A stretch of 64,000 bases of DNA from Dictyostelium discoideum (taxonomy: Eukaryota), in assembly GCA_000004695.1 (NCBI GenBank), contig CM000151.3:6368001-6432000 (forward strand), written 5' to 3'. Below are positions 3,216 through 19,050 of the stretch, in pieces. The notes beneath the pieces are model-generated. The model was not told the DNA's origin, ran no database searches, and saw only the letters and a list, made by a program, of their open reading frames with translations. A program made the translations under genes and the position numbers. Numbering within the stretch: the stretch's first letter is position 1; every line of letters begins with the position of its first letter.

Positions 3216-3454
3216 TAAATAAAAATTTATTTTTGTTTAAAATTTAATCTATCAATTTAAAATGCTTAAATTGGATGATTATAAAATAGTTGTTCATTTT
3301 TATAAAAGTAATTGAACGTTTTAATTTTTTTTTTTTTTTTTTTGTAATTAAATATTAATTAATATTAACTCACCACAATAAAAATATATATTCGAATAAA
3401 ATAAATAAATAAATAAATTTTATTTTTATATATACATTAATTTAATAGAATTCC

Positions 3455-3492: not shown

Positions 3493-4986
3493 AAAGAAAA
3501 TAAAATTTATAAATATAATCAAAATTATTAAATTGAAACCAAAATTAATAATTGGAGAATTACTTGGGTTTTCACCAGAATCAGGACCTTGATAATCCAA
3601 GTAAACGAATTGTGGAGTTGAATCAATAGTGAGTTTAACTTTATTATTACTTGATGAGATGGTTTGTTTTATATTTTGATAGTTGTAAACAGAAGCGAAA
3701 TCTGCATCCAATTCGATTTCAATCGGGGTTGTATCTTCATCAGTTTTAAAGTTTGTAGAGTTTACCCAAATTAAATAACATGTTGAGCTTGGATTGCTAT
3801 ATGCATAAACAATGACACCACTTGGTAAACCTTTAAGAGATTTTGAAGAATCTAATGTTTTATCAAACAAATGGTGATCCCAAGTAACTAAAGATTTAGA
3901 GGAATCTTTAAGAACTGCTTTATCCTTTGCAAGTGTTTGATAGTCATAGAATAAACCCATATTTGAAAAAGCATCGGTACCAGAATTTGTATCACCCAAT
4001 ATAAAGATATGATTTTGACATACTCCTACCAATGTTGAAATAGTTGGTAATTTTAAGAAATAATTACGAGCCAAAGCAGAACTACCATAATAACCAGTAC
4101 CAGATTTAGTTGCAACACCAGTTTCAGTTACTATCCAAACTGATGGATTGAAGTTATATTTATTTGTTACTTTTCTGAAACTATTTTGTAAATCGGTATA
4201 TGCCAATAAGTATGCATCGGAATTTGTTTTTGAAGTACCATACATTGGATAGAAATGAGTTGAAATTGCATCAATATAATTCTTTCCAAATAAGGATGGA
4301 TTGGTTACAGAAGAGTTTTCACCATATCTTAATACAGCATCCAAGAATAATGGGTAACCTAAACCTCCGACAGTAATGAAACAAGTTGGATCAATTGATT
4401 TTGCAACTTCCCATGATATTCTTAATAAACGAACATATGTAAAAATATCACCTTGGAATCTTGCCAATTGGGCATTACTTGGTGGATTAGTTGCCCATGT
4501 TGAAACTACATTCCAATCGGAAACCCAATCTGGTTCATTATAGATTTCATAGATTTTAATATCACTCTTGTAAGTTGATACAATTTGTGATACACAATAT
4601 GCAAATTCATTAGCTTGATTGACTTTACCATTATCTAGCCAAATTGGTTGATAAATACTTGAAGGTACTGCTGAATCATCATTTTGATCAAAAGTTATAA
4701 ATGCTGTGAAATTACTTTGACCTGCTCTTTTTGAACTACCAAAACTATCATTATCATAAAGAATTTTATATCCCCATTGTTTGAAAAATGTGCATGGGAA
4801 TTTCATTCTTTGAGAACGAATTGATGCTTCCCCCATCAATGGTCCTAAATCTGAATTTGACCATCCACTTTTATATCCTGCATTTATACCATTTAAATAT
4901 TGTGGCCCATTATATGTACCACTTTCTGATAATACTATATTTATAAATAATATTGATAATAATAATAATATTTTTAAATTTTTCAT
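3487..4986 (-). CDS. Secreted glycoside hydrolase family 5 (cellulase/mannanase-like) protein with hydrophobic C-terminal (GPI-type) tail
   Basis: Single 499-aa ORF. N-terminal signal peptide MKNLKILLLLSILFINIVLS. GH5 hallmarks: 'IYEIYNEPDW' (NEP acid/base), 'STHFYPMY' (H-x-Y), 'WIVTETGVA' (nucleophile Glu in TExG). C-terminal hydrophobic stretch NLIILIIFINFIFFI. Confidence 0.55.
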
Positions 4987-8611: not shown

Positions 8612-9820
8612 TCACTTTCCTTCAAATTCAATAAAATGTTCGAAAAATGGTGGTAATGAAGAAGGAAATTTAATAGTTGGAGTAATTTCCCAATATGAAC
8701 AAACTCTAGGTGAAGAAGGATGATATTGAAAACATTTCATTTCATTATGACAAGTATCATCTTCACATGATTCAAATTCACATTGTTGACTTGTAGTATT
8801 ACAAAATTGATTGGATAAACATGTACCACCGAAACAAATGGGTGTATTATTTATACTTTGCAAATTTCTTTCAAATTCTATACAAACACCACTCCAACCG
8901 AACTTTCTACAAATCCAACCAGTTGGACAATTACCACATTCAAATATTTCATTAAAGAAATTAAATGATCCATATGGTATACATAATGCACTATTTAATG
9001 GATTATACGTTGAACATTCAAAACCGCTTGGACAACTATTATTTGATAATTCACATGAAACAGTTTGATTTGTTCTTTCAACTATAATTTCACCACTACC
9101 ATTATTATTATTATTACTATTATTATTGATTAAAACAGTTGTAGTTGTTAAATTCTCTATAACTTTAAAACATGATACTATACCAACTCCAATAAGTGGT
9201 AAACATTCAGTACCAACATCACATTGAACTATATCGCAACTAGTGGGTAGACATGTTTTGACATCGTTCACCATCCTACAAACATATCCATCAACACATG
9301 GTAAATCACATCTTGTTCTTCCAAATATTATTTTACTATTTATACTCTTTAAAAAATTGGTACAAACTGGTTCAGGTTGACAACATAATGATTCAGGTTC
9401 TTCACAATCTGCCACTGATTCATAAATACAATCAAATCCTTTACTTTCACAATTTAATTCTTTACAAGTTATATTTGGTATTGGTATAATTTCGTAACCT
9501 GGTATTTCATTAATATCACCCCATAGTTCATAGAATACACCAGTTTGAAGATTTCTTAAACAATTTTGAATCTCTAATTTTTTATTACTTATATAACCAA
9601 TTACTGTATCGATTTCTAAACATAATGAAACTTGTCCTGGACAACAACTTGTTAAAATTAATGACATACACATTGGATATGCCGCTAAACATAATTCTGA
9701 TGATAATGTTTCACATCCTGTTAAACAATTAATTTTTGATTTATTTTCAATCTCTATTATTATTAATATTATTATTATTATATATTTTATTATTTTAAAT
9801 TGTTTATTTATATTTATTTT

Positions 9821-9823
<3 letters not shown>
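8612..9823 (-). CDS. Secreted cysteine-rich protein (more than 45 Cys), unknown function
   Basis: ORF 8612..9892. The first 23 codons are poly-K read out of an oligo(A) tract. The likely start is the second ATG at 9821-9823 (MKININKQFKIIKYIIIIILIII, signal-like). Dense Cys spacing (CLTGCETLSSELC..CCPGQVSLC..CEEPESLCCQPEPVC...) suggests EGF/disulfide-knot-like extracellular modules. Confidence 0.5.
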
Positions 9824-10147: not shown

Positions 10148-10380
10148 AAAAAAAACAAAAAAAAATAAATTAATATATAAATAAAAATAATAAAAAGGAA
10201 TACCTTAACCCATGGGAATATATTATAATAAATTAATTATTATGATAAAAGATTTGGATTTTTTAAAATAAATTCTAACATCGAAATATAAATATACTGT
10301 AAAGCCAATATAATAAATTTACATATTATTGTGTCTTTACTTAAAGTTGTGTGATTAATAATTTTATTAAACTCTTTTTT

Positions 10381-10456
10381 TTATTCTTATTTTTTTATTA
10401 TTATTATTATTATATTATTATTATTATTATATTATTATTATTATTATTATTGTTAT

Positions 10457-10494
<38 letters not shown>

Positions 10495-11252
10495 AGTAGT
10501 TGGTGTTATATGAGCAGTATGGTCTGAAGTGTTCCGGGATGTTTATGGTCATGAGTTTCGAGTTCCAGTTGTAGTGTTATCGTTGAATTTTATTTGGTTT
10601 CTTCTGTACCATATCGATTCCATAATGGCTCCTATAAGATTTGATGAGAATGGTGTGAGTAGTTTTCCGAGAACTTTTTCGCTCCATGGACCGCGGTAAG
10701 TGTTGTTAGAGTCTTTACAGACCTTTTGATAGATTGAGTCGATATCCTGTTTTATTGATTTGCATTCGAAGAAGATGTGCATAGACGACTCTTCTTCTTT
10801 ACATGAGTGGCAATTCTCCCCATGGTGTTTTGGAAGTGCCTTGAGTAGATACCTCCATGCTAAGTCTCTTCCTTTGATAGTTGTGATTGATCTGGCTTCT
10901 CTAAATGGTAGAATTGGGTGATTAATGTTCTTTTGAATCAGTTTTTGACCTGTTGTTGGCTGGTGTTTGTTCCATCCCTTGTATTTGATATCCATCATGT
11001 TTCTATAGATTACTTTTAATTTTTGTTTGTTTTTGTATTTGGGTTTGACTTGGTTTAGTTTGAGAGTTATTCGCTCTCTTGGGTGGTGCAACAACTTCCA
11101 GGCTTTCCAGCATTTGATGTGAATCCTTGATAGTGAGTTTTCTTTTTCCGACTTCCAGACTTCCATATGTGGAGGGCAGTTCTGGTCGTCTTTTTCTCTG
11201 AAGTATTGTTCGTATATCCATGCTTTCTGGGCATTGGATCTGGTTGCCATAT
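10381..11252 (-). mobile_element. 5'-truncated, internally deleted copy of a TRE5-type (TRE5-A-like) non-LTR retrotransposon, lying 43-45 bp upstream of tRNA-Ser
   Basis: About 97% identical to 12463..13560 of the full element (3' module plus the last ~230 codons of ORF2, ORF remnant 10549..11250). It carries a ~185-bp internal deletion relative to 12699-12883. Homology ends at 11252 and tRNA-Ser starts at 11295. Confidence 0.75.
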
Positions 11253-11294
11253 TCCAGAGATAAAATTTTATTTATTTAAATATTTATTCTTAAA

Positions 11295-11376
11295 AAACAT
11301 CAAAGACATCGTAGCAAAGTGGTCTAATGCGTCTGACTAGAAATCAGATCCCTTCGGGGGCGCAGGTTCGAACCCT
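11295..11376 (+). tRNA. tRNA-Ser (anticodon AGA)
   Basis: 82 nt. Acceptor gacatcg/cgatgtc, 3-bp D-stem (class II), anticodon stem tctga/tcaga with loop ct-AGA-aa, 13-nt variable arm (cccttcggggg), T-arm gcagg-ttcgaac-cctgc, discriminator G. A box tagcaaagtgg, B box ggttcgaaccc. Confidence 0.85.
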
Positions 11377-11480
11377 GCCGATGTCGACTATATCTTTTAT
11401 CCTTAATCCAATTTTTTTAATCAAGATATTGTTAATACCGCTTTTAGGTAAAAAAAAAAAAAATCAAGATATTGTTACAT

Positions 11481-12044
11481 ACCATCCATCTTCCAACATA
11501 TCAACCACATATCACATCAAAAAGGTAGAAATACACTATTCAGATTTTTCTCAAGGTCACTTCCTGGAATCAACTATGAACGTAACGTACCATGCAAAAT
11601 CTGTAACAATATAATCCGTGACCCATACACTCACCTTTTTATAGACTGTATGCAAGTAAAAGAAATAGAAAACATAATAATTTCAACATTCAACAATCTC
11701 TCATTATTCAAGATCAGAAATTGGGATCTCAATTCACTAGATATTAGCAAAACAAATAAAAAAGAAAGAATCTACCCAAATTTAATCGGCATAATTATAC
11801 ATCAACTATGGAGAATAATTTGTCACAAACTATTCAATCAAGACGAATCTAAATCTCCACCCTCATTTGATCCAACATTAATTGAAAAAGAACTAACCAA
11901 CTTAATTAAAATAGAGAAATTCATTTTAATAAAGAAGATCGAAAGGAATGAAACAATATACAAATTAAATAACAGAGACCAATTAATAATCAACTTCAAC
12001 ACATCATGGCATAACCCGAACACTCCAAACCCAATTCCATTATA

Positions 12045-12080
<36 letters not shown>
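11481..12080 (+). mobile_element. 3' fragment of a second non-LTR retroelement (TRE3-like?) ending in a 35-nt poly(A), about 105 bp downstream of tRNA-Ser
   Basis: ORF 11650..12045 (131 aa) ends just before the poly(A) at 12046-12080. Its segment '...IIIHQLWRIICHKLFNQDE' parallels the TRE5 ORF2 C-terminal '...IMESIWYRRNQIKFNDN'. The 5' boundary is uncertain. Confidence 0.4.
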
Positions 12081-12185
12081 AAGTAGTAGTAATCATAATA
12101 TAACCAAAAATATCAACATATAACAATATAAAAATTTAAAAATTTAAAAATCTAAAAATTTAAAAATGTAATAAAATATAACAAT

Positions 12186-12283
12186 ATACCGCTTTTAGGT
12201 AAAAAAAAAAAAAATCAAGATATTGTTACACCGCTTTTAGGTAAAAAAAAAAAATAATCAAGATATTGTTTACACCGCTTTTA

Positions 12284-12327
<44 letters not shown>

Positions 12328-12372
12328 ACCGCTTTTAGGTAAAAAAAAAAATCAAGATATTGTTCCTTTTTT
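12186..12372 (+). repeat. Tandem array (4-5 units) of accgcttttaggt-(A)10-38-atcaagatattgtt(ac). One more unit lies at 11437-11480 on the other side of the TRE3-like fragment
   Basis: Read directly from the sequence. The units look like extremely 5'-truncated poly(A) retroelement tails with a duplicated 14-bp target. Confidence 0.6.
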
Positions 12373-12425
12373 TTTTTTTTTAATAACATCACTCAATTTG
12401 AGTGTGTTCTAGGAGAGTTTATTTG

Positions 12426-12459
<34 letters not shown>

Positions 12460-12582
12460 CTTTTTTTCTTGTTATTCTTATTTTTTTTTTTTTTATTATT
12501 ATTATATTATTATTATTATTATTATATTATTATTATTATATTATTATTATTATTATATTATTATTATTATTATTATTGTTAT

Positions 12583-12616
<34 letters not shown>

Positions 12617-12621
<5 letters not shown>

Positions 12622-15600
12622 AGTAGTTGGTGTTATATGAGCAGTATGGTATGAAGTGTTCCGGGATTTTTATGGTCATGAGTTTCGAGTTCCAGTTGTG
12701 GCTGAATTTTTCGAGTCTTCTTTTTATTGATGCGGTCCGATTGATTGACTCTCGGTTATCAGTGCATCTTAGTTCTTGACGTAGTTGTTTTTCTACTATC
12801 TTTCTTGTTCTATCCCATTCGGCATCTCTCGCTTTTTTTATTTTATGAATTATTTGGTTCTCTGTTATTATTGTAGTGTTATCGTTGAATTTTATTTGAT
12901 TTCTTCTGTACCATATCGATTCCATAATGGCTCCTATCAGATTTGATGAGAATGGTGTGAGTAGTTTTCCGAGAACTTTTTCGCTCCATGGACCGTGGTA
13001 AGTGTTGTTGGAGTCTTTACAGACCTTTTGATAGATTGAGTCGATATTCTGTTTTATTGATTTGCATTCGAAGAAGATGTGCATAGACGATTCTTCTTCT
13101 TTACATGAGTGGCAATTCTCCCCATGGTGTTTTGGAAGTGCCTTGAGTAGATATCTCCATGCTAAGTCTCTTCCTTTGATAGTTGTGATTGATCTGGCTT
13201 CTCTAAATGGTAGAATTGGGTGATTAATGTTCTTTTGAATCAGTTTTTGACCTGTTGTTGGCTGGTGTTTGTTCCATCCCTTGTATTTGATATCCATCAT
13301 GTTTCTATAGATTACTTTTAATTTTTGTTTGTTTTCGTATTTGGGTTTGACTTGGTTTAGTTTGAGAGTTATTCGCTCTCTTGGGTGGTGCAACAACTTC
13401 CAGGCTTTCCAGCATTTGATGTGAATCCTTGATAGTGAGTTTTCTTTTTCCGACTTCCAGACTTCCATATGTGGAGGGCAGTTCTGGTCGTCTTTTTCTC
13501 TGAGGTATTGTTCGTATATCCATGCTTTCTGGGCATTGGATCTGGTTGCCATATTCCAGAGTTCCAGGCCTCCAATTTCATAGTCTCTTCTGCTCCTTTC
13601 TTTTGAGATAGCCCACCTGTCCCCTTTGAATAACATGTTGGCATTAACGTTCTCCAGTTTCTTTATGTCATTTATTTCGTTGATGTATAGTTGGAATGTT
13701 AGTTGGGACAGCAGGTATGATTTGAGGATTGTGATTCTACCTTTTAGCGTTGATGACACGCTCGAATAGCATTTTGTGAGGTTTTCCAGTTTGTTCACCG
13801 TATCATCTACTTTGCTTATTACACCTTTGCGGTTGAAGAAAAAGCCAAGATATCTTTCTTCTTCTTTCGCCCCAATTGTCTTATATTTGGTCTTTATCTT
13901 TGGGTTTTTAGTGATGCACACACATTTATTATCGTTTATTTTTGCTGCTGTGGCTTGGCAAAATTTTATAACTTTCATATCCATTTTATCTGCGTCATCT
14001 ATGTTACTGGCTAGTGTGACTGTGTCGTCTGCATATTGTCCAATCTTCATCGAATTGTTCTGATTGAGTTTTATGCCTATTATGGTATTGTCTTTTCTTA
14101 TTGATGTTGATAAGCATTCACATACTATAGCGAAGAGAGTTGGTGAAATTGGGTCGCCCTGTTTTGTACCTCTTCCTGCTCTGAAGGATTCAGAGAGTTG
14201 TCCATTTACCATGACCCTTATGTTGGTGTTCGTTAACATGCTTAGTATTGTGTTTGTTATTTTCCGAGGGAACTTTAGATGGTTTAGAGTCCTTATTAAC
14301 GCTTTATGAGATATTGAATCGAAGGCTTTTTCGAAGTCATAAAAGGTGATTATCGTGTTTCTATCACTCTTTTCCATTGCTAAATCCAAAGCTATAATGT
14401 TGTTGTGGAGTAGCCTTCCTGGTATAAAACCGTTCTGGTACTTTGAGATTATGTTTGGCAGGATTTTTAGTATTCTATTGTTGATTATTTTTGAGTAGAT
14501 TTTGTAGTCTACGTTGAGTAACGTTATTGGTCTTCTGTTTGAGATTTCCAAGACATCCCCTTTACCTTTGTATATTGATGTAAGGATACCGTTCTTGAAT
14601 TCTGTTGGAATTTCATTGTTTAAAAAGAAGTTGAATAGTTCTGTGAGGATTGGAATTAGTTTGTGTTGGTGGATTTTATAGAATGAAGATGTTATTCCAT
14701 CTTCTCCTGGTGATTTACCTTCTGCTATCTTTTCTATTGCTAGCTTAACCTCATATTCTTCGATTCTGTCTTCCATCTCTGTTAATTTTTTTTTATCTAT
14801 TGGTGGGTTCCAGGTGCTTAGAAGTTCTGTATGTGTTTCTTGGTCGCATTCTTTCTCTTTGAAGAGTGTCTCGTAATATTTTCTGAAGCAATCTGTTATT
14901 TCTTTTTGTTCTGTTTCGATTTCTCCATTGGATGGGTTCTTTATTCTGTGAATCTGGGAGCTCGAGTCTCTTTTTTTAAGAATAGATGTAAGGAGATTTG
15001 ATGCTATTTCTTTATTGTTGATGTAGTTGATTGAGCTTTTGATCATTCTGTCTATTCTTTCTTCTTCTTGAAGTATTGTTATTTCGTTCGATATTGTTTC
15101 TTTTTCATATTTGTTTTTTGTTTTTGTGTGTTCATTTGCTAGATTTGATAGCGTTTTTTTTCTCTCTAGTATTCTTTTCTTTTCTGTTGTAATGCATTGT
15201 TTTTTTATTTTTTTTTTGAACTTAATCCAGTATTCCGTTATGTTAAGGTTTTTTCTTTTGGTTTCCTGGTAGTGGTCGATTATTTTTTCTATCTTTTTTA
15301 TTGTTTTATCTTCTTTAATTATTATTGAGTTCATTTTCCATAGGGGTGATTTGTATATTTTTGTGAAATTTGGTATTTTGAAATCCATCACTACTATGTT
15401 ATGGTCTGATTTGTTTATTTTATCTATTATCTTGTACGAGTGATTGAGTTGGTGCATCTTTGTTGATAAGAATGTTCTATCGATTAGTTTATCTTTGAAG
15501 GTTGTTTTAGTTGTTGAATTTGGTAGTATTTCGGTGAGTCCTACTTCCATCATTAGGAATTCTATTGTTTCATTTTCTGTGAATTTTCTCTTATCGGATG

Positions 15601-16048
15601 ATCCATCTTTGAACTTGATTTTTGCATATTTGTTGATGTTAAAGTCACCAGTAACTATGTCTGCCTGTTCTAGATCTTCAAGGGAAATATTGTTTGAAAA
15701 CCATCCTTTTCTTCTGTCATATGAGGCTGGTGCATAGATGCAAATTATGTTGATTTCCATATTGTTTAGAATTGCAGTAAATTTTAAGATTCTGCCTTCT
15801 TTTTCTTCCAAGTTTTTAATTTCTATTTGTTCTAGGTGATTTATTGCCATTACTCCTTTTCCTCTTGCTTCTTTTCCTTTTCCTCCTGTTGAGTAATGGT
15901 TTTTGATTTGCGCTAGATTTTGATCCTTTTTTAGATTTGTTTCTGTTAGTATTGATATATCAGGTTTTATTAGGTTAATTGTATTTTTTGTCTGATTCAT
16001 GCTTTTGATTGTTGAGCAACCTTGGCAATTCCAGGTCATTATTTTTAT

Positions 16049-16098
<50 letters not shown>

Positions 16099-16125
16099 TT
16101 TTTTTTTTTTTTTTTTTTTTTTTTT

Positions 16126-16163
<38 letters not shown>

Positions 16164-16165
16164 AA
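12617..16165 (-). CDS. TRE5 ORF2: apurinic-like endonuclease plus reverse transcriptase, with C-terminal Cys/His motif
   Basis: 1182-aa ORF. The first 38 codons are poly-Lys from a ~110-nt internal oligo(A). The functional start is probably ATG at 16049-16051 (MIKIMTWNCQG...) or ORF2 is reached by frameshift from ORF1 (+1 frame relative to ORF1). Confidence 0.8.
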
Positions 16166-17522
16166 ATGAGACAGATGGAAGTATGTCTTGGAGTACTTTG
16201 GGCAATTTGTCTCTTAGTGCTGCTTCCATTAGATCTGATTCTTCCTTTGTTATTTTAGTTGGAGTTTTGTAAGGTGTTGATATTTCTTGGTGATTAGTTG
16301 TTGGGTTTGGAGATGAGTTGGATCTTTTTCTTTTTACTGTCTCTGGGGTTGCTGGAGATTCTGGATTTTGGATAGGTGACATTGTTTGTCTTTTTTTGAT
16401 TGAGGCTAACCTTGGGGTTTCCTTCTTTTTTTGGTTATTTATTTTTTCTTCAAAAATTCTGTTCTCTTCTTCATTTTCGAACATCTTTCTTACCACTTCT
16501 AATGCTTCTTCATCTTCAGTTAACTCCATTTTCCTTTTCTCTTTGCTGTCAACACTATATGTTACTGTTATTGGTGGGACACGAAGTACTTTTCTCTTTT
16601 CAATATTGTTTATTGTGTTTGTCGTTTCTGTCGTTGTGGTTGTTGTAGTTGCTCTAATTGTTGTGGGTTTTTTATTTTCAATTTCGTTTTCCTTTACTTT
16701 TTCGTTTTTGCTCTTGTCTTTGATGTTGTCATTATTGATTTCTTTATTATTTTCTTTTCTGTTTTCTATTTTGTTTTTGTTGTTATTTTTTGATTCGCTA
16801 GTGTTTTTATGATTGGATTCTTCTTTTGATTTTATGTTTATTCTTGTGTTTTCCTTTATCTCGGGATTTGGTAGTTCCGTGATTTTTGAATTTTCTGAGA
16901 TTTCGTCTTCGATTTCCTTATTTGTTTTTCTTTGATTTTTTGTTTCTTCTGTTGTAGTGAGGAATAGTATTGTTATGTGTTTACAATGTATTAGCTGGTC
17001 TTTGTGCTCTGGACTGATAATTGAGTTGAATGAGTGTATTATCAGGTTTTCACCTAAATTATCTAATTTGATTATTTCCAGTCCTTCTTCATGCAATGTT
17101 TTTTCTACTATGTCCATTGATTTTTCCCAGTTGAATGTTTTGAAGATCTTTTTTGGTTTTATTATTGCTCTGTGAACTCCTTTTAGTACTCCGTTGAAAA
17201 CGTTAGAGTACTTGATTACTTGAGTTCTGCAGTCAGTTAGGATTTTGAATTTATTCTTACTTATTATTATCTTATCATCTCCTTGTAAATGAATTTCCAA
17301 TTCTGCTTTTAAGTTGTTGGAAATCTCATCTGGGATATTGATCATGAATTTATATTGTTTTAGTTCAATTTGAGTGTGGTATATTGCTTCGCTTATTTTA
17401 TCAAGTGTTCTGTACGTATTTTTTAAATATTTGAACTTTGTTCTGAGTTCATTTGATTTCTTGATTTTATCTGCCAATGTTTCTGTTGATTCTGTCATTA
17501 TTGTATTTGCCAATTTATTCAT
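16158..17522 (-). CDS. TRE5 ORF1 (454 aa, basic and Lys/Glu/Asn-rich nucleic-acid-binding type)
   Basis: Sits just upstream of ORF2 within the same element. The stop TAA is followed directly by the oligo(A) tract. ORF2 overlaps it by 8 nt in another frame. Confidence 0.7.
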
Positions 17523-17599
17523 TTCTTTTTTTTCTTTAAAATCTTTATTCGACTTTAAAAATTTAAAATTCTGGAAATTCCCTGAAAGAATGTTTTCGG

Positions 17600-17671
<72 letters not shown>

Positions 17672-17674
<3 letters not shown>

Positions 17675-18930
17675 TCTTTTTTTTATATGAAAAATGAAAT
17701 AATCAAATAAAAAAAGTGTTGTTGTTGATGTTTTTTCTCTTACTGATTATTTTTTCCTTTTTTTTTCAATTTTGCTTCGCAAAATTTTCAAAAAAAAGAA
17801 AAAAATAAATTACAATAAAATAAAGAAATAAAGTAGTTTATTCTAAGTGTATTTTATTTTATTTTTTTTAAGTCTTTTTTTTATATGAAAAATGAAATAA
17901 TCAAATAAAAAAAGTGTTGTTGTTGATGTTTTTTCTCTTACTGATTATTTTTTCCTTTTTTTTTCAATTTTGCTTCGCAAAATTTTCAAAAAAAAGAAAA
18001 AAATAAATTACAATAAAATAAAGAAATAAAGTAGTTTATTCTAAGTGTATTTTATTTTATTTTTTTTAAGTCTTTTTTTTATATGAAAAATGAAATAATC
18101 AAATAAAAAAAGTGTTGTTGTTGATGTTTTTTCTCTTACTGATTATTTTTTCCTTTTTTTTTCAATTTTGCTTCGCAAAATTTTCAAAAAAAAGAAAAAA
18201 ATAAATTACAATAAAATAAAGAAATAAAGTAGTTTATTCTAAGTGTATTTTATTTTATTTTTTTTAAGTCTTTTTTTTATATGAAAAATGAAATAATCAA
18301 ATAAAAAAAGTGTTGTTGTTGATGTTTTTTCTCTTACTGATTATTTTTTCCTTTTTTTTTCAATTTTGCTTCGCAAAATTTTCAAAAAAAAGAAAAAAAT
18401 AAATTACAATAAAATAAAGAAATAAAGTAGTTTATTCTAAGTGTATTTTATTTTATTTTTTTTAAGTCTTTTTTTTATATGAAAAATGAAATAATCAAAT
18501 AAAAAAAGTGTTGTTGTTGATGTTTTTTCTCTTACTGATTATTTTTTCCTTTTTTTTTCAATTTTGCTTCGCAAAATTTTCAAAAAAAAGAAAAAAATAA
18601 ATTACAATAAAATAAAGAAATAAAGTAGTTTATTCTAAGTGTATTTTATTTTATTTTTTTTAAGTCTTTTTTTTATATGAAAAATGAAATAATCAAATAA
18701 AAAAAGTGTTGTTGTTGATGTTTTTTCTCTTACTGATTATTTTTTCCTTTTTTTTTCAATTTTGCTTCGCAAAATTTTCAAAAAAAAGAAAAAAATAAAT
18801 TACAATAAAATAAAGAAATAAAGTAGTTTATTCTAAGTGTATTTTATTTTATTTTTTTTAAGTCTTTTTTTTATATGAAAAATGAAATAATCAAATAAAA
18901 AAAGTGTTGTTGTTGATGTTTTTCCTCTTC
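17672..18930. repeat. 6.35 tandem copies of a 198-bp unit (TRE5 A-module-like 5' repeat, putative promoter region)
   Basis: Units begin at 17672, 17870, 18068, 18266, 18464, 18662 and 18860, and are almost identical. The array is preceded by a 75-nt oligo(dT) on the + strand at 17596-17671. Confidence 0.85.
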
Positions 18931-18976
18931 TATTGTTCCTTAATAAATTTGTAATATGAGTTATTTTTTCATCAAA

Positions 18977-19050
18977 GGGACTATAGTTTAGTTGGATATA
19001 ACGACCGGCTACGAACCGGTAGGTCTCAGGTTCGACCCCTGATGGTCTCG
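18977..19050 (+). tRNA. tRNA-Arg (anticodon ACG)
   Basis: 74 nt. Acceptor gggacta/tggtctc (two G-U pairs), anticodon stem accgg/ccggt with loop ct-ACG-aa, T-arm tcagg-ttcgacc-cctga, discriminator G. Confidence 0.7.

Follow-up and report, generated by a model that had tools for sequence, protein, structure and literature searches.

An array of very short, oligo(A)-tailed units downstream of a tRNA-Ser gene of Dictyostelium discoideum is probably a stack of serial TRE3-type target-primed insertions into one tRNA-directed nick site, which would have aborted at the base of the element's 3′ terminal stem and to which a template jump or, alternatively, an insertion into a tail would have been added once. 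TRE3 elements are the 3′ type of the tRNA-gene-targeted retroelements of D. discoideum; TRE3-A was formerly called Tdd-3. The array lies in an AT-rich stretch of 64,000 nucleotides (hereafter referred to as the window; G+C 22.6%), which is of D. discoideum AX4, as positions 8615–9823 match the AX4 protein DDB_G0276203 with 100% identity.

Two repeats make up the array (Table 1). Exact copies of ACCGCTTTTAGGT start at 11437, 12188, 12230, 12274 and 12328, and exact copies of ATCAAGATATTGTT (hereafter referred to as the 14-mer) at 11420, 11463, 12214, 12257 and 12351; all ten are on the + strand and fall between tRNA-Ser (11305–11386) and the 3′ end of a TRE5 element (12367). With up to two mismatches allowed, 0.40 matches to ACCGCTTTTAGGT were expected, and five or more were obtained in none of 100 shuffles. 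The block common to the units is 15 nt long, A[C/T]ACCGCTTTTAGGT, and not 13. Its AT variant (ATACCGCTTTTAGGT; at 11435 and 12186) occurs in micro-unit 1 and in a 0.7-kb TRE3-type fragment, and its AC variant (ACACCGCTTTTAGGT; at 12228, 12272 and 12326) in micro-units 2–4. From left to right, the order is 14-mer, A, ATACCGCTTTTAGGT with A13–14, 14-mer, the 0.72-kb fragment ending in CAAT-ATACCGCTTTTAGGT with A13–14, 14-mer, ACACCGCTTTTAGGT with A12-T-AA, 14-mer, T, ACACCGCTTTTAGGT with A39–40, (A)CACCGCTTTTAGGT with A10–11, 14-mer, CC and the T15 of TRE5. The A runs thus read 13–14, 13–14, A12-T-AA, 40 and 10–11, and the fillers at the junctions differ among the units (A, none or T). TRF detected a 44-bp period (2.6 copies, 94% matches) at 12188–12301.

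The original prediction described five micro-units, each consisting of a 13-nt retroelement terminus with its tail and followed by a 14-bp direct repeat. The five exact 13-mers are there, but they belong to only four micro-units plus one longer copy: the repeat at 12186–12213 marks where the 0.7-kb TRE3-type fragment itself ends, tail included. A 14-mer does not follow every unit, as 12272–12325 runs directly into the next 15-mer; the A run of micro-unit 3 counts 40 residues instead of the 38 given before, and its final A is common to micro-unit 4, with no 14-mer after it. The 14-mer at 11420–11433, which retains the original left flank TTTTTTTA, had been overlooked. Because this copy is present to the left of micro-unit 1, the 14-mer can be read as a flanking target duplication. 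The array does end at the TRE5 3′ terminus, as had been claimed, with the last 14-mer, CC and then T15 at 12367.

Table 1. Positions of the features at the tRNA-Ser/tRNA-Arg locus of the window and at related loci of sister species.
Sequence	Feature	Position	Strand	Remark
Window	Truncated TRE5 copy (5′ end missing)	10372–11259	−	Upstream of tRNA-Ser
Window	tRNA-Ser(AGA)	11305–11386	+	ARAGORN
Window	B box of tRNA-Ser	11365–11375	+	Presumed targeting landmark for downstream TRE3-type insertions
Window	14-mer copy 0, ATCAAGATATTGTT	11420–11433	+	Leftmost target-site copy; 34–47 nt past the tRNA-Ser 3′ end
Window	Micro-unit 1	11435–11462	+	ATACCGCTTTTAGGT + A13(14); 1-nt filler A before it, at 11434
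Window	14-mer copy 1	11463–11476	+	
Window	TRE3-type copy, 5′-truncated	11477–12213	+	Translation; homologues; homology to TRE5 ORF2 C-terminus
Window	ORF2 C-terminal zinc-finger region in TRE3-type copy	11479–12045	+	
Window	Internal A33 in TRE3-type copy	12047–12079	+	
Window	3′ UTR of TRE3-type copy	12080–12200	+	Ends in ATACCGCTTTTAGGT
Window	Tail A13(14) of TRE3-type copy	12201–12213	+	
Window	14-mer copy 2	12214–12227	+	
Window	Micro-unit 2	12228–12256	+	ACACCGCTTTTAGGT + A12-T-AA
Window	14-mer copy 3	12257–12270	+	Followed by 1-nt T at 12271
Window	Micro-unit 3	12272–12325	+	ACACCGCTTTTAGGT + long A tail
Window	Micro-unit 4	12326–12350	+	(A)CACCGCTTTTAGGT + A10(11)
Window	14-mer copy 4, rightmost	12351–12364	+	Retains original right flank CC
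Window	TRE5 target duplication, left copy, TATTGTTCC	12358–12366	.	Overlaps 14-mer copy 4 by 7 bp
Window	Full-length TRE5-type non-LTR element	12367–18930	−	
Window	T15 tail of TRE5	Starts at 12367	−	Abuts array
Window	ORF2 of full-length TRE5	12617–16165	−	RVT_1 and endonuclease domains
Window	ORF1 of full-length TRE5	16158–17522	−	454 aa
Window	198-bp 5′ module repeats of full-length TRE5	17654–18929	−	
Window	TRE5 target duplication, right copy, TATTGTTCC	18931–18939	.	
Window	tRNA-Arg(ACG)	18977–19050	+	Target of full-length TRE5; ARAGORN
L001	Target duplication			ATCAAAAAAAGATG
L001	Hairpin 3′ terminal module	3350–3398		
L001	Hairpin 3′ terminal module	1802–1851	−	
L002	Target duplication			TAGTAAAACTTTTTT
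L002	Hairpin 3′ terminal module	3590–3638		
L037	Target duplication			TCCTTTGATCAAT
L037	Hairpin 3′ terminal module	4057–4105		

The longer copy links the 15-mer to a retroelement. Its coding part (11479–12045) specifies 188 amino acids up to a stop codon, followed by A33, a 121-nt A/T-rich UTR, the 15-mer and the tail. The closest database proteins are unnamed products of D. dimigraforme, D. citrinum and D. firmibasis (46–65% identity), and the C-terminal 188 residues align to residues ~946–1065 of the TRE5 ORF2 in the window (BLASTP E = 1e-4; hhalign against the TRE5 ORF2 C-terminus, probability 81%, E = 1.3e-5). On the strength of these database relatives and of the zinc-finger-region alignment to TRE5 ORF2, we take the fragment to be the tail of a TRE-class ORF2 other than TRE5; TRE3 likewise has an ORF2 C-terminal zinc-finger region homologous to that of TRE5. 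The endonuclease and reverse transcriptase parts are missing through 5′ truncation. A Pfam search of the 188-residue fragment gave no match, and a profile search with six TRE3-like C-termini retrieved only three further unnamed dictyostelid proteins, none of them named TRE3 or bearing a reverse transcriptase. Exact matches to the products of the TRE3 ORF remnant, the TRE5 ORF2, the neighbouring 426-aa ORF and DDB_G0276203 were absent from the index searched, which apparently does not include the AX4 assembly.

We obtained the loci of four related proteins (L001, L002, L037 and L038). Three of them have a TRE3-like architecture, and L001 adds a UTR-only copy on the other strand, which brings the number of copies to four; L038 contains a partial ORF remnant only, with no recognisable 3′ end. 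In the four copies, which come from D. dimigraforme and D. citrinum, the ORF2 stop is followed by a long A run, ~130 nt of UTR, ACACCGC-(~37 nt)-[C/T]AGGT and a tail of A11–22, and the tails directly abut 13–15 bp duplications of the 5′-junction sequence. For three of the four, a tRNA gene, or a tRNA-like sequence uncalled by ARAGORN, lies upstream in the same orientation (tRNA-Lys for L002 and tRNA-Pro for L037); no tRNA gene was found adjoining the longer L001 copy.

The ~37-nt insert of the relatives is a strong predicted hairpin (−15.4 kcal/mol, z = −5.1), and its outermost predicted pairs, ACC/GGT, are the two ends kept in the AX4 13-mer; the terminal module is conserved as a hairpin, for which RNAalifold gave 16 pairs, 3 of them with compensatory changes, from only 4 sequences. 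The AX4 copies, A[C/T]-ACC-GCTTTTA-GGT, retain both ends of the relatives' terminal module but lack this hairpin, and the mini-stem that they could form alone is weak (−2.1 to −3.4 kcal/mol, z = −0.6 to −1.8). The micro-units start within 1–2 nt of the terminal stem base. There is good, though indirect, reason to regard the 15-mer as the genuine 3′ end of a TRE3-type subfamily of D. discoideum, the basis being this one fragment and relatives at ~58% protein identity. The original proposal of a poly(A) retroelement whose 3′ end is the 13-mer was borne out to this extent: it ends the fragment in the window, and both of its halves match element termini of the sister species. In metagenome contigs, ACCGCTTTTAGGTAAAAAAA had 30 matches, all with exactly seven A; they fall into two or three conserved coding contexts of marine bacteria and are unrelated; a scan of viral contigs gave 0 matches to it.

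Among the few sister-species loci, we spotted by eye two pairs of tailed units of 12–15 nt. At L001 3462–3550 (D. dimigraforme, GCA_054859025.1), just 3′ of a TRE3-like copy, GACCAAGGTTATT-A25-TTGTTATTTTTTT is followed by GACCAAGGTTAT-A14-TGTTATTTTTTT, that is, a 12-nt terminus with a tail and a repeated flank, of other terminal sequence. At L002 3699–3759 (D. citrinum, GCA_054859145.1), ~60 bp 3′ of the TRE3-like copy that lies downstream of tRNA-Lys, TGGATTTCCAGTAAT-A18 runs straight into TGGATTTCCAGTAATC-A12; no duplication separates them, which resembles the junction 12325/12326. Given these two similar-looking pairs, stacked tailed micro-units may be common in dictyostelids.

With regard to the origin of the 14-mer, we retrieved the orthologous locus from four other assemblies by way of the neighbouring gene (L003, L004, L005 and L006). 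The D. discoideum locus L004 is 99.5% identical to the window over 15.7 kb, and its array equals that of AX4 base for base save for two A runs (A33 to A27 and A40 to A33). The number of units is the same in AX4 and L004, the only other carrier of the array; being near-identical (99.5%), the two are not independent samples. L005 and L006 represent D. discoideum strains ~92–95% identical at the locus, and L003 is from D. cf. discoideum; their tRNA-Ser and tRNA-Arg genes are 84, 81 and 69 bp apart in L005, L006 and L003, respectively, and the spacers of all three contain no TRE5, no TRE3 fragment and no micro-unit. Removal of all insertions from the window rebuilds an ancestral spacer of 86 bp, in which ATCAAGATATTGTT-CC-TTAATAAA aligns with the single-copy spacer of the empty alleles. 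This alignment identifies the 14-mer as native DNA duplicated by the insertions and not as element sequence. Empty orthologous sites, the search for which had been proposed with the original prediction, were thus found in silico, the 14-mer fitted its assigned role of a single-copy native target, and the array proved to be lineage-specific.

The retrieved loci had two further features. The empty alleles L005 (9256–9280) and L006 (9168–9192, both − strand) carry an 11-bp tandem duplication, CCAGATTTCTT twice and CAGATATTCTT twice, ~10–31 bp upstream of tRNA-Arg in a spacer that is otherwise single-copy. The alignment of L004 to the window stops inside the TRE5 ORF2 region (L004 1–4336 against the window beyond 15765), and there is no tRNA-Arg in this 21-kb locus; either L004 and AX4 differ structurally within or beyond TRE5, or the repeat was assembled differently.

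The array and the full-length TRE5 element share one short spacer. The ancestral site lay 34–47 nt downstream of tRNA-Ser and 41–54 nt upstream of tRNA-Arg within the 86 bp. Published windows place TRE3 40–150 bp past a tRNA gene and in its orientation, and TRE5 ~44–54 bp upstream of one and in the opposite orientation (PMC5911963). All five TRE3-type copies are on the + strand like tRNA-Ser, and their target, which begins 34 and ends 47 nt beyond this gene, falls at the lower limit of the published TRE3 window or slightly short of it. The 5′ end of the full-length TRE5 is 46 nt upstream of tRNA-Arg, and this element would have made independent use of the overlapping site TATTGTTCC. The array and TRE5 abut because the TRE3 window and the TRE5 window, the latter ~47 bp upstream of tRNA-Arg, coincide on the same few bases of the spacer; the abutment follows from geometry and has no special significance.

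The TRE5 elements themselves showed two peculiarities. Adjoining the 5′ end of the full-length copy (17654–18929) are ~6.4 head-to-tail modules of 198 bp, 99–99.7% identical, which look like an unusually long array of the A-module, the promoter module of TRE5-A, of ~200 bp (PMC3159450). The truncated copy on the − strand (10372–11259) matches the full copy at 12507–12699 and 12871–13561 with 96–98.7% identity; 12700–12870 and the final ~140 nt of that copy are missing from it, and it ends in A9 at an internal A-rich position, as if it had been primed or polyadenylated upstream of the normal terminus.

The array can probably be explained as follows. All insertions would have entered one 14-bp staggered-nick site in the orientation of tRNA-Ser, each of them duplicating ATCAAGATATTGTT. 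The bottom strand would be nicked at ...CTTGAT^TAAAAAAA, an L1-like T/A site; T/A-type nick sites are favoured by the APE-class endonucleases of L1-like elements. After an insertion, the left 14-mer would keep the original upstream flank, the nick context and the distance to the B box, and could be hit again as a still valid target. Since only the left 14-mer keeps the nick context and the B-box distance, later hits would go to the left, so that the oldest insertions would stand on the right and micro-unit 1 would be the youngest. The variants, which read AC, AC, AC, AT and AT from right to left, fit this order without proving it. In four events, reverse transcription would have got no further than ~15 nt beyond the tail, a point that coincides with the 5′ base of the element's terminal stem (ACC...GGT), and in one it would have extended for 0.7 kb. 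The fixed start of all four micro-units suggests a preferred stop at the stem base, where the enzyme presumably binds to initiate. The junction 12325/12326, which lacks a 14-mer, may reflect a jump of the reverse transcriptase to another poly(A) template or, alternatively, an insertion into an earlier A tail that duplicated A only.

Three other readings were considered and rejected. Microhomology of the 14-mer end (GTT) with the element was examined as a cause of the fixed truncation, and none that was consistent was found. The octamer AACAATAT in the TRE3 UTR (12180–12187), directly 5′ of the 13-mer, is perfectly reverse-complementary to the octamer that ends the 14-mer, ATATTGTT (for example, 12220–12227), and a match of this length arises by chance in ~1–2% of random or shuffled 40-mers; twin priming through this pair predicts inversions by its geometry, and none is present. 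TRE5 machinery was dismissed as the source of the micro-units, since it inserts in the opposite orientation.

Several points stand against serial insertion. Four truncations at the same nucleotide (within 1 nt) are not expected of random 5′ truncation, and a preferred stop has to be postulated; for four or five events to leave the same 14-bp duplication, both nicks must have fallen at the same positions each time; and micro-units 2–4, all of the AC variant, could derive from one founder by duplication. The weak mini-stem of the AX4 version and the single D. discoideum fragment behind the assignment of the terminus count against it as well. That both nicks were used again is plausible because the relatives show a narrow stagger of 13–15 bp. 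The two 15-mer variants, the differing fillers and the differing tails argue for separate events. As to the two origins offered in the original prediction, repeated hits and amplification, these differences argue for at least three independent insertions, while the AC-type units could partly be duplicates. Local duplication may in any case have contributed to the array. As a full account, it would reduce the true insertions to two or three (an AC-type micro-unit, the 0.7-kb fragment and possibly micro-unit 1) and ascribe the rest to unequal sister-chromatid exchange or replication slippage, followed by small mutations, by which a T would have been inserted at 12271, one A of a tail changed to T and one 14-mer lost. 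Such amplification would agree with the common AC variant and start point of micro-units 2–4 and with the 44-bp, 94%-matching array that TRF detected. Direct repeats of 14–15 bp spaced ~43 bp apart, as present here, are a good substrate for slippage, and the A runs do differ between AX4 and L004 (33 against 27 and 40 against 33). It still requires two independent micro-insertions with the same stop, as micro-unit 1 is AT-type and lies beyond the fragment; tails and junction fillers differ among the units, and the number of units is the same in L004, a weak test at 99.5% identity over 15.7 kb. We consider this account possible but on the whole rather unlikely.

The identical duplication boundaries of all units could also be obtained in one complex event, in which a single tethered TRE3 ribonucleoprotein went through several rounds of abortive priming, short cDNA synthesis and template switching, with the RNA 3′ end alternating with the single-stranded 14-nt target overhang, so that several units arose together. 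The R2 reverse transcriptase is reportedly capable of end-to-end template jumping (Bibillo and Eickbush, 2002/2004), and the junction 12325/12326 resembles such jumping in that two template 3′ ends are joined head to tail with no target sequence between them; D. citrinum L002 3699–3759 also pairs tailed 15-nt units without a duplication between them. Only one of the four junctions is of this kind, however, and the others have the full target duplication. The presence of both AT and AC variants calls for two or more template RNAs, units of different age or origin are suggested by the A12-T-AA tail and the additional T, and no mechanism is known by which a target overhang, once filled in, could be copied anew. 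A single event is, in our judgement, improbable. An ordinary minisatellite of no retroelement origin, neighbouring the TRE3 fragment by chance, would share with the array the ~43 bp period, the high identity of the units and the variable homopolymers, and the region is AT-rich and repeat-rich, with many low-complexity TRF arrays nearby. Here, however, the units consist of a retroelement terminus, a tail on every unit and a target duplication; the 15-mer is continuous with the 3′ UTR of the fragment and agrees with the termini conserved among related elements, the 14-mer occurs once, as native spacer, in the empty alleles, and the whole block is missing from three other assemblies. Nor are the units uniform, as variant, filler, tail and presence of the 14-mer vary from junction to junction and one unit lies 0.75 kb away beyond the longer copy. 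Judged by these comparisons, the minisatellite explanation is in effect refuted and retains a very small probability.

Serial insertion, which we prefer, relates the array closely to known TRE biology. Established features of these elements include the targeting of TRE3, truncation at the 5′ end, tails of oligo(A), duplication of the target and the clustering of several TREs at a single tRNA gene, and tandem copies of Tdd-3 were reportedly described by Marschalek et al. in 1990. Like the array, TRE3 is of the non-LTR type with an oligo(A) tail, lies downstream of a tRNA gene with which it shares its transcriptional orientation, makes target duplications of 13–15 bp and undergoes 5′ truncation. 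The array differs from it in that four of the five copies consist of 15 nt plus a tail and that one target duplication is common to all. Four independent de novo integrations of TRE5-A occurred at one rDNA position (PMC3159450), where, as in the array, a protein-guided choice reuses the same nucleotide position; in the array, in contrast, successive events are kept side by side in one allele, with the target regenerated and the history readable as a stack. No description of stacked 15-nt-terminus copies with a common duplication was found in the papers covered by the search. The array represents an unusually clean, extreme case of an established process and does not define a new element type.

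The evidence for target-primed reverse transcription usually comes from 5′-truncated copies that are long and heterogeneous. Here, one allele would hold the record of successive events at the same nick site, with both nicks reusable with nucleotide precision; truncation clusters at one position beside the terminal stem of the element, and TRE3 and TRE5 have both used a tRNA-Ser/tRNA-Arg spacer that is only 86 bp long. The main value of the locus would be that of a natural record of abortive reverse transcription and of nick-site precision. If the fixed stop is general, micro-units would provide a simple genomic assay of abortive retrotransposition in a compact genome; if it is not, the array is a tidy, ordinary case of the known clustering of TREs at tRNA genes. 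A more speculative proposal, about which we are doubtful, is that the TRE3 reverse transcriptase has an initiation–elongation checkpoint at the terminal stem base, failure of which would leave ~15 nt plus a tail, sealed with a normal duplication, and would regenerate the target and thereby lead to reiterated micro-insertions. If such a checkpoint exists, micro-unit stacks would read out abortive target-primed reverse transcription and could gauge the frequency of initiation and the precision of nicking genome-wide in dictyostelids.
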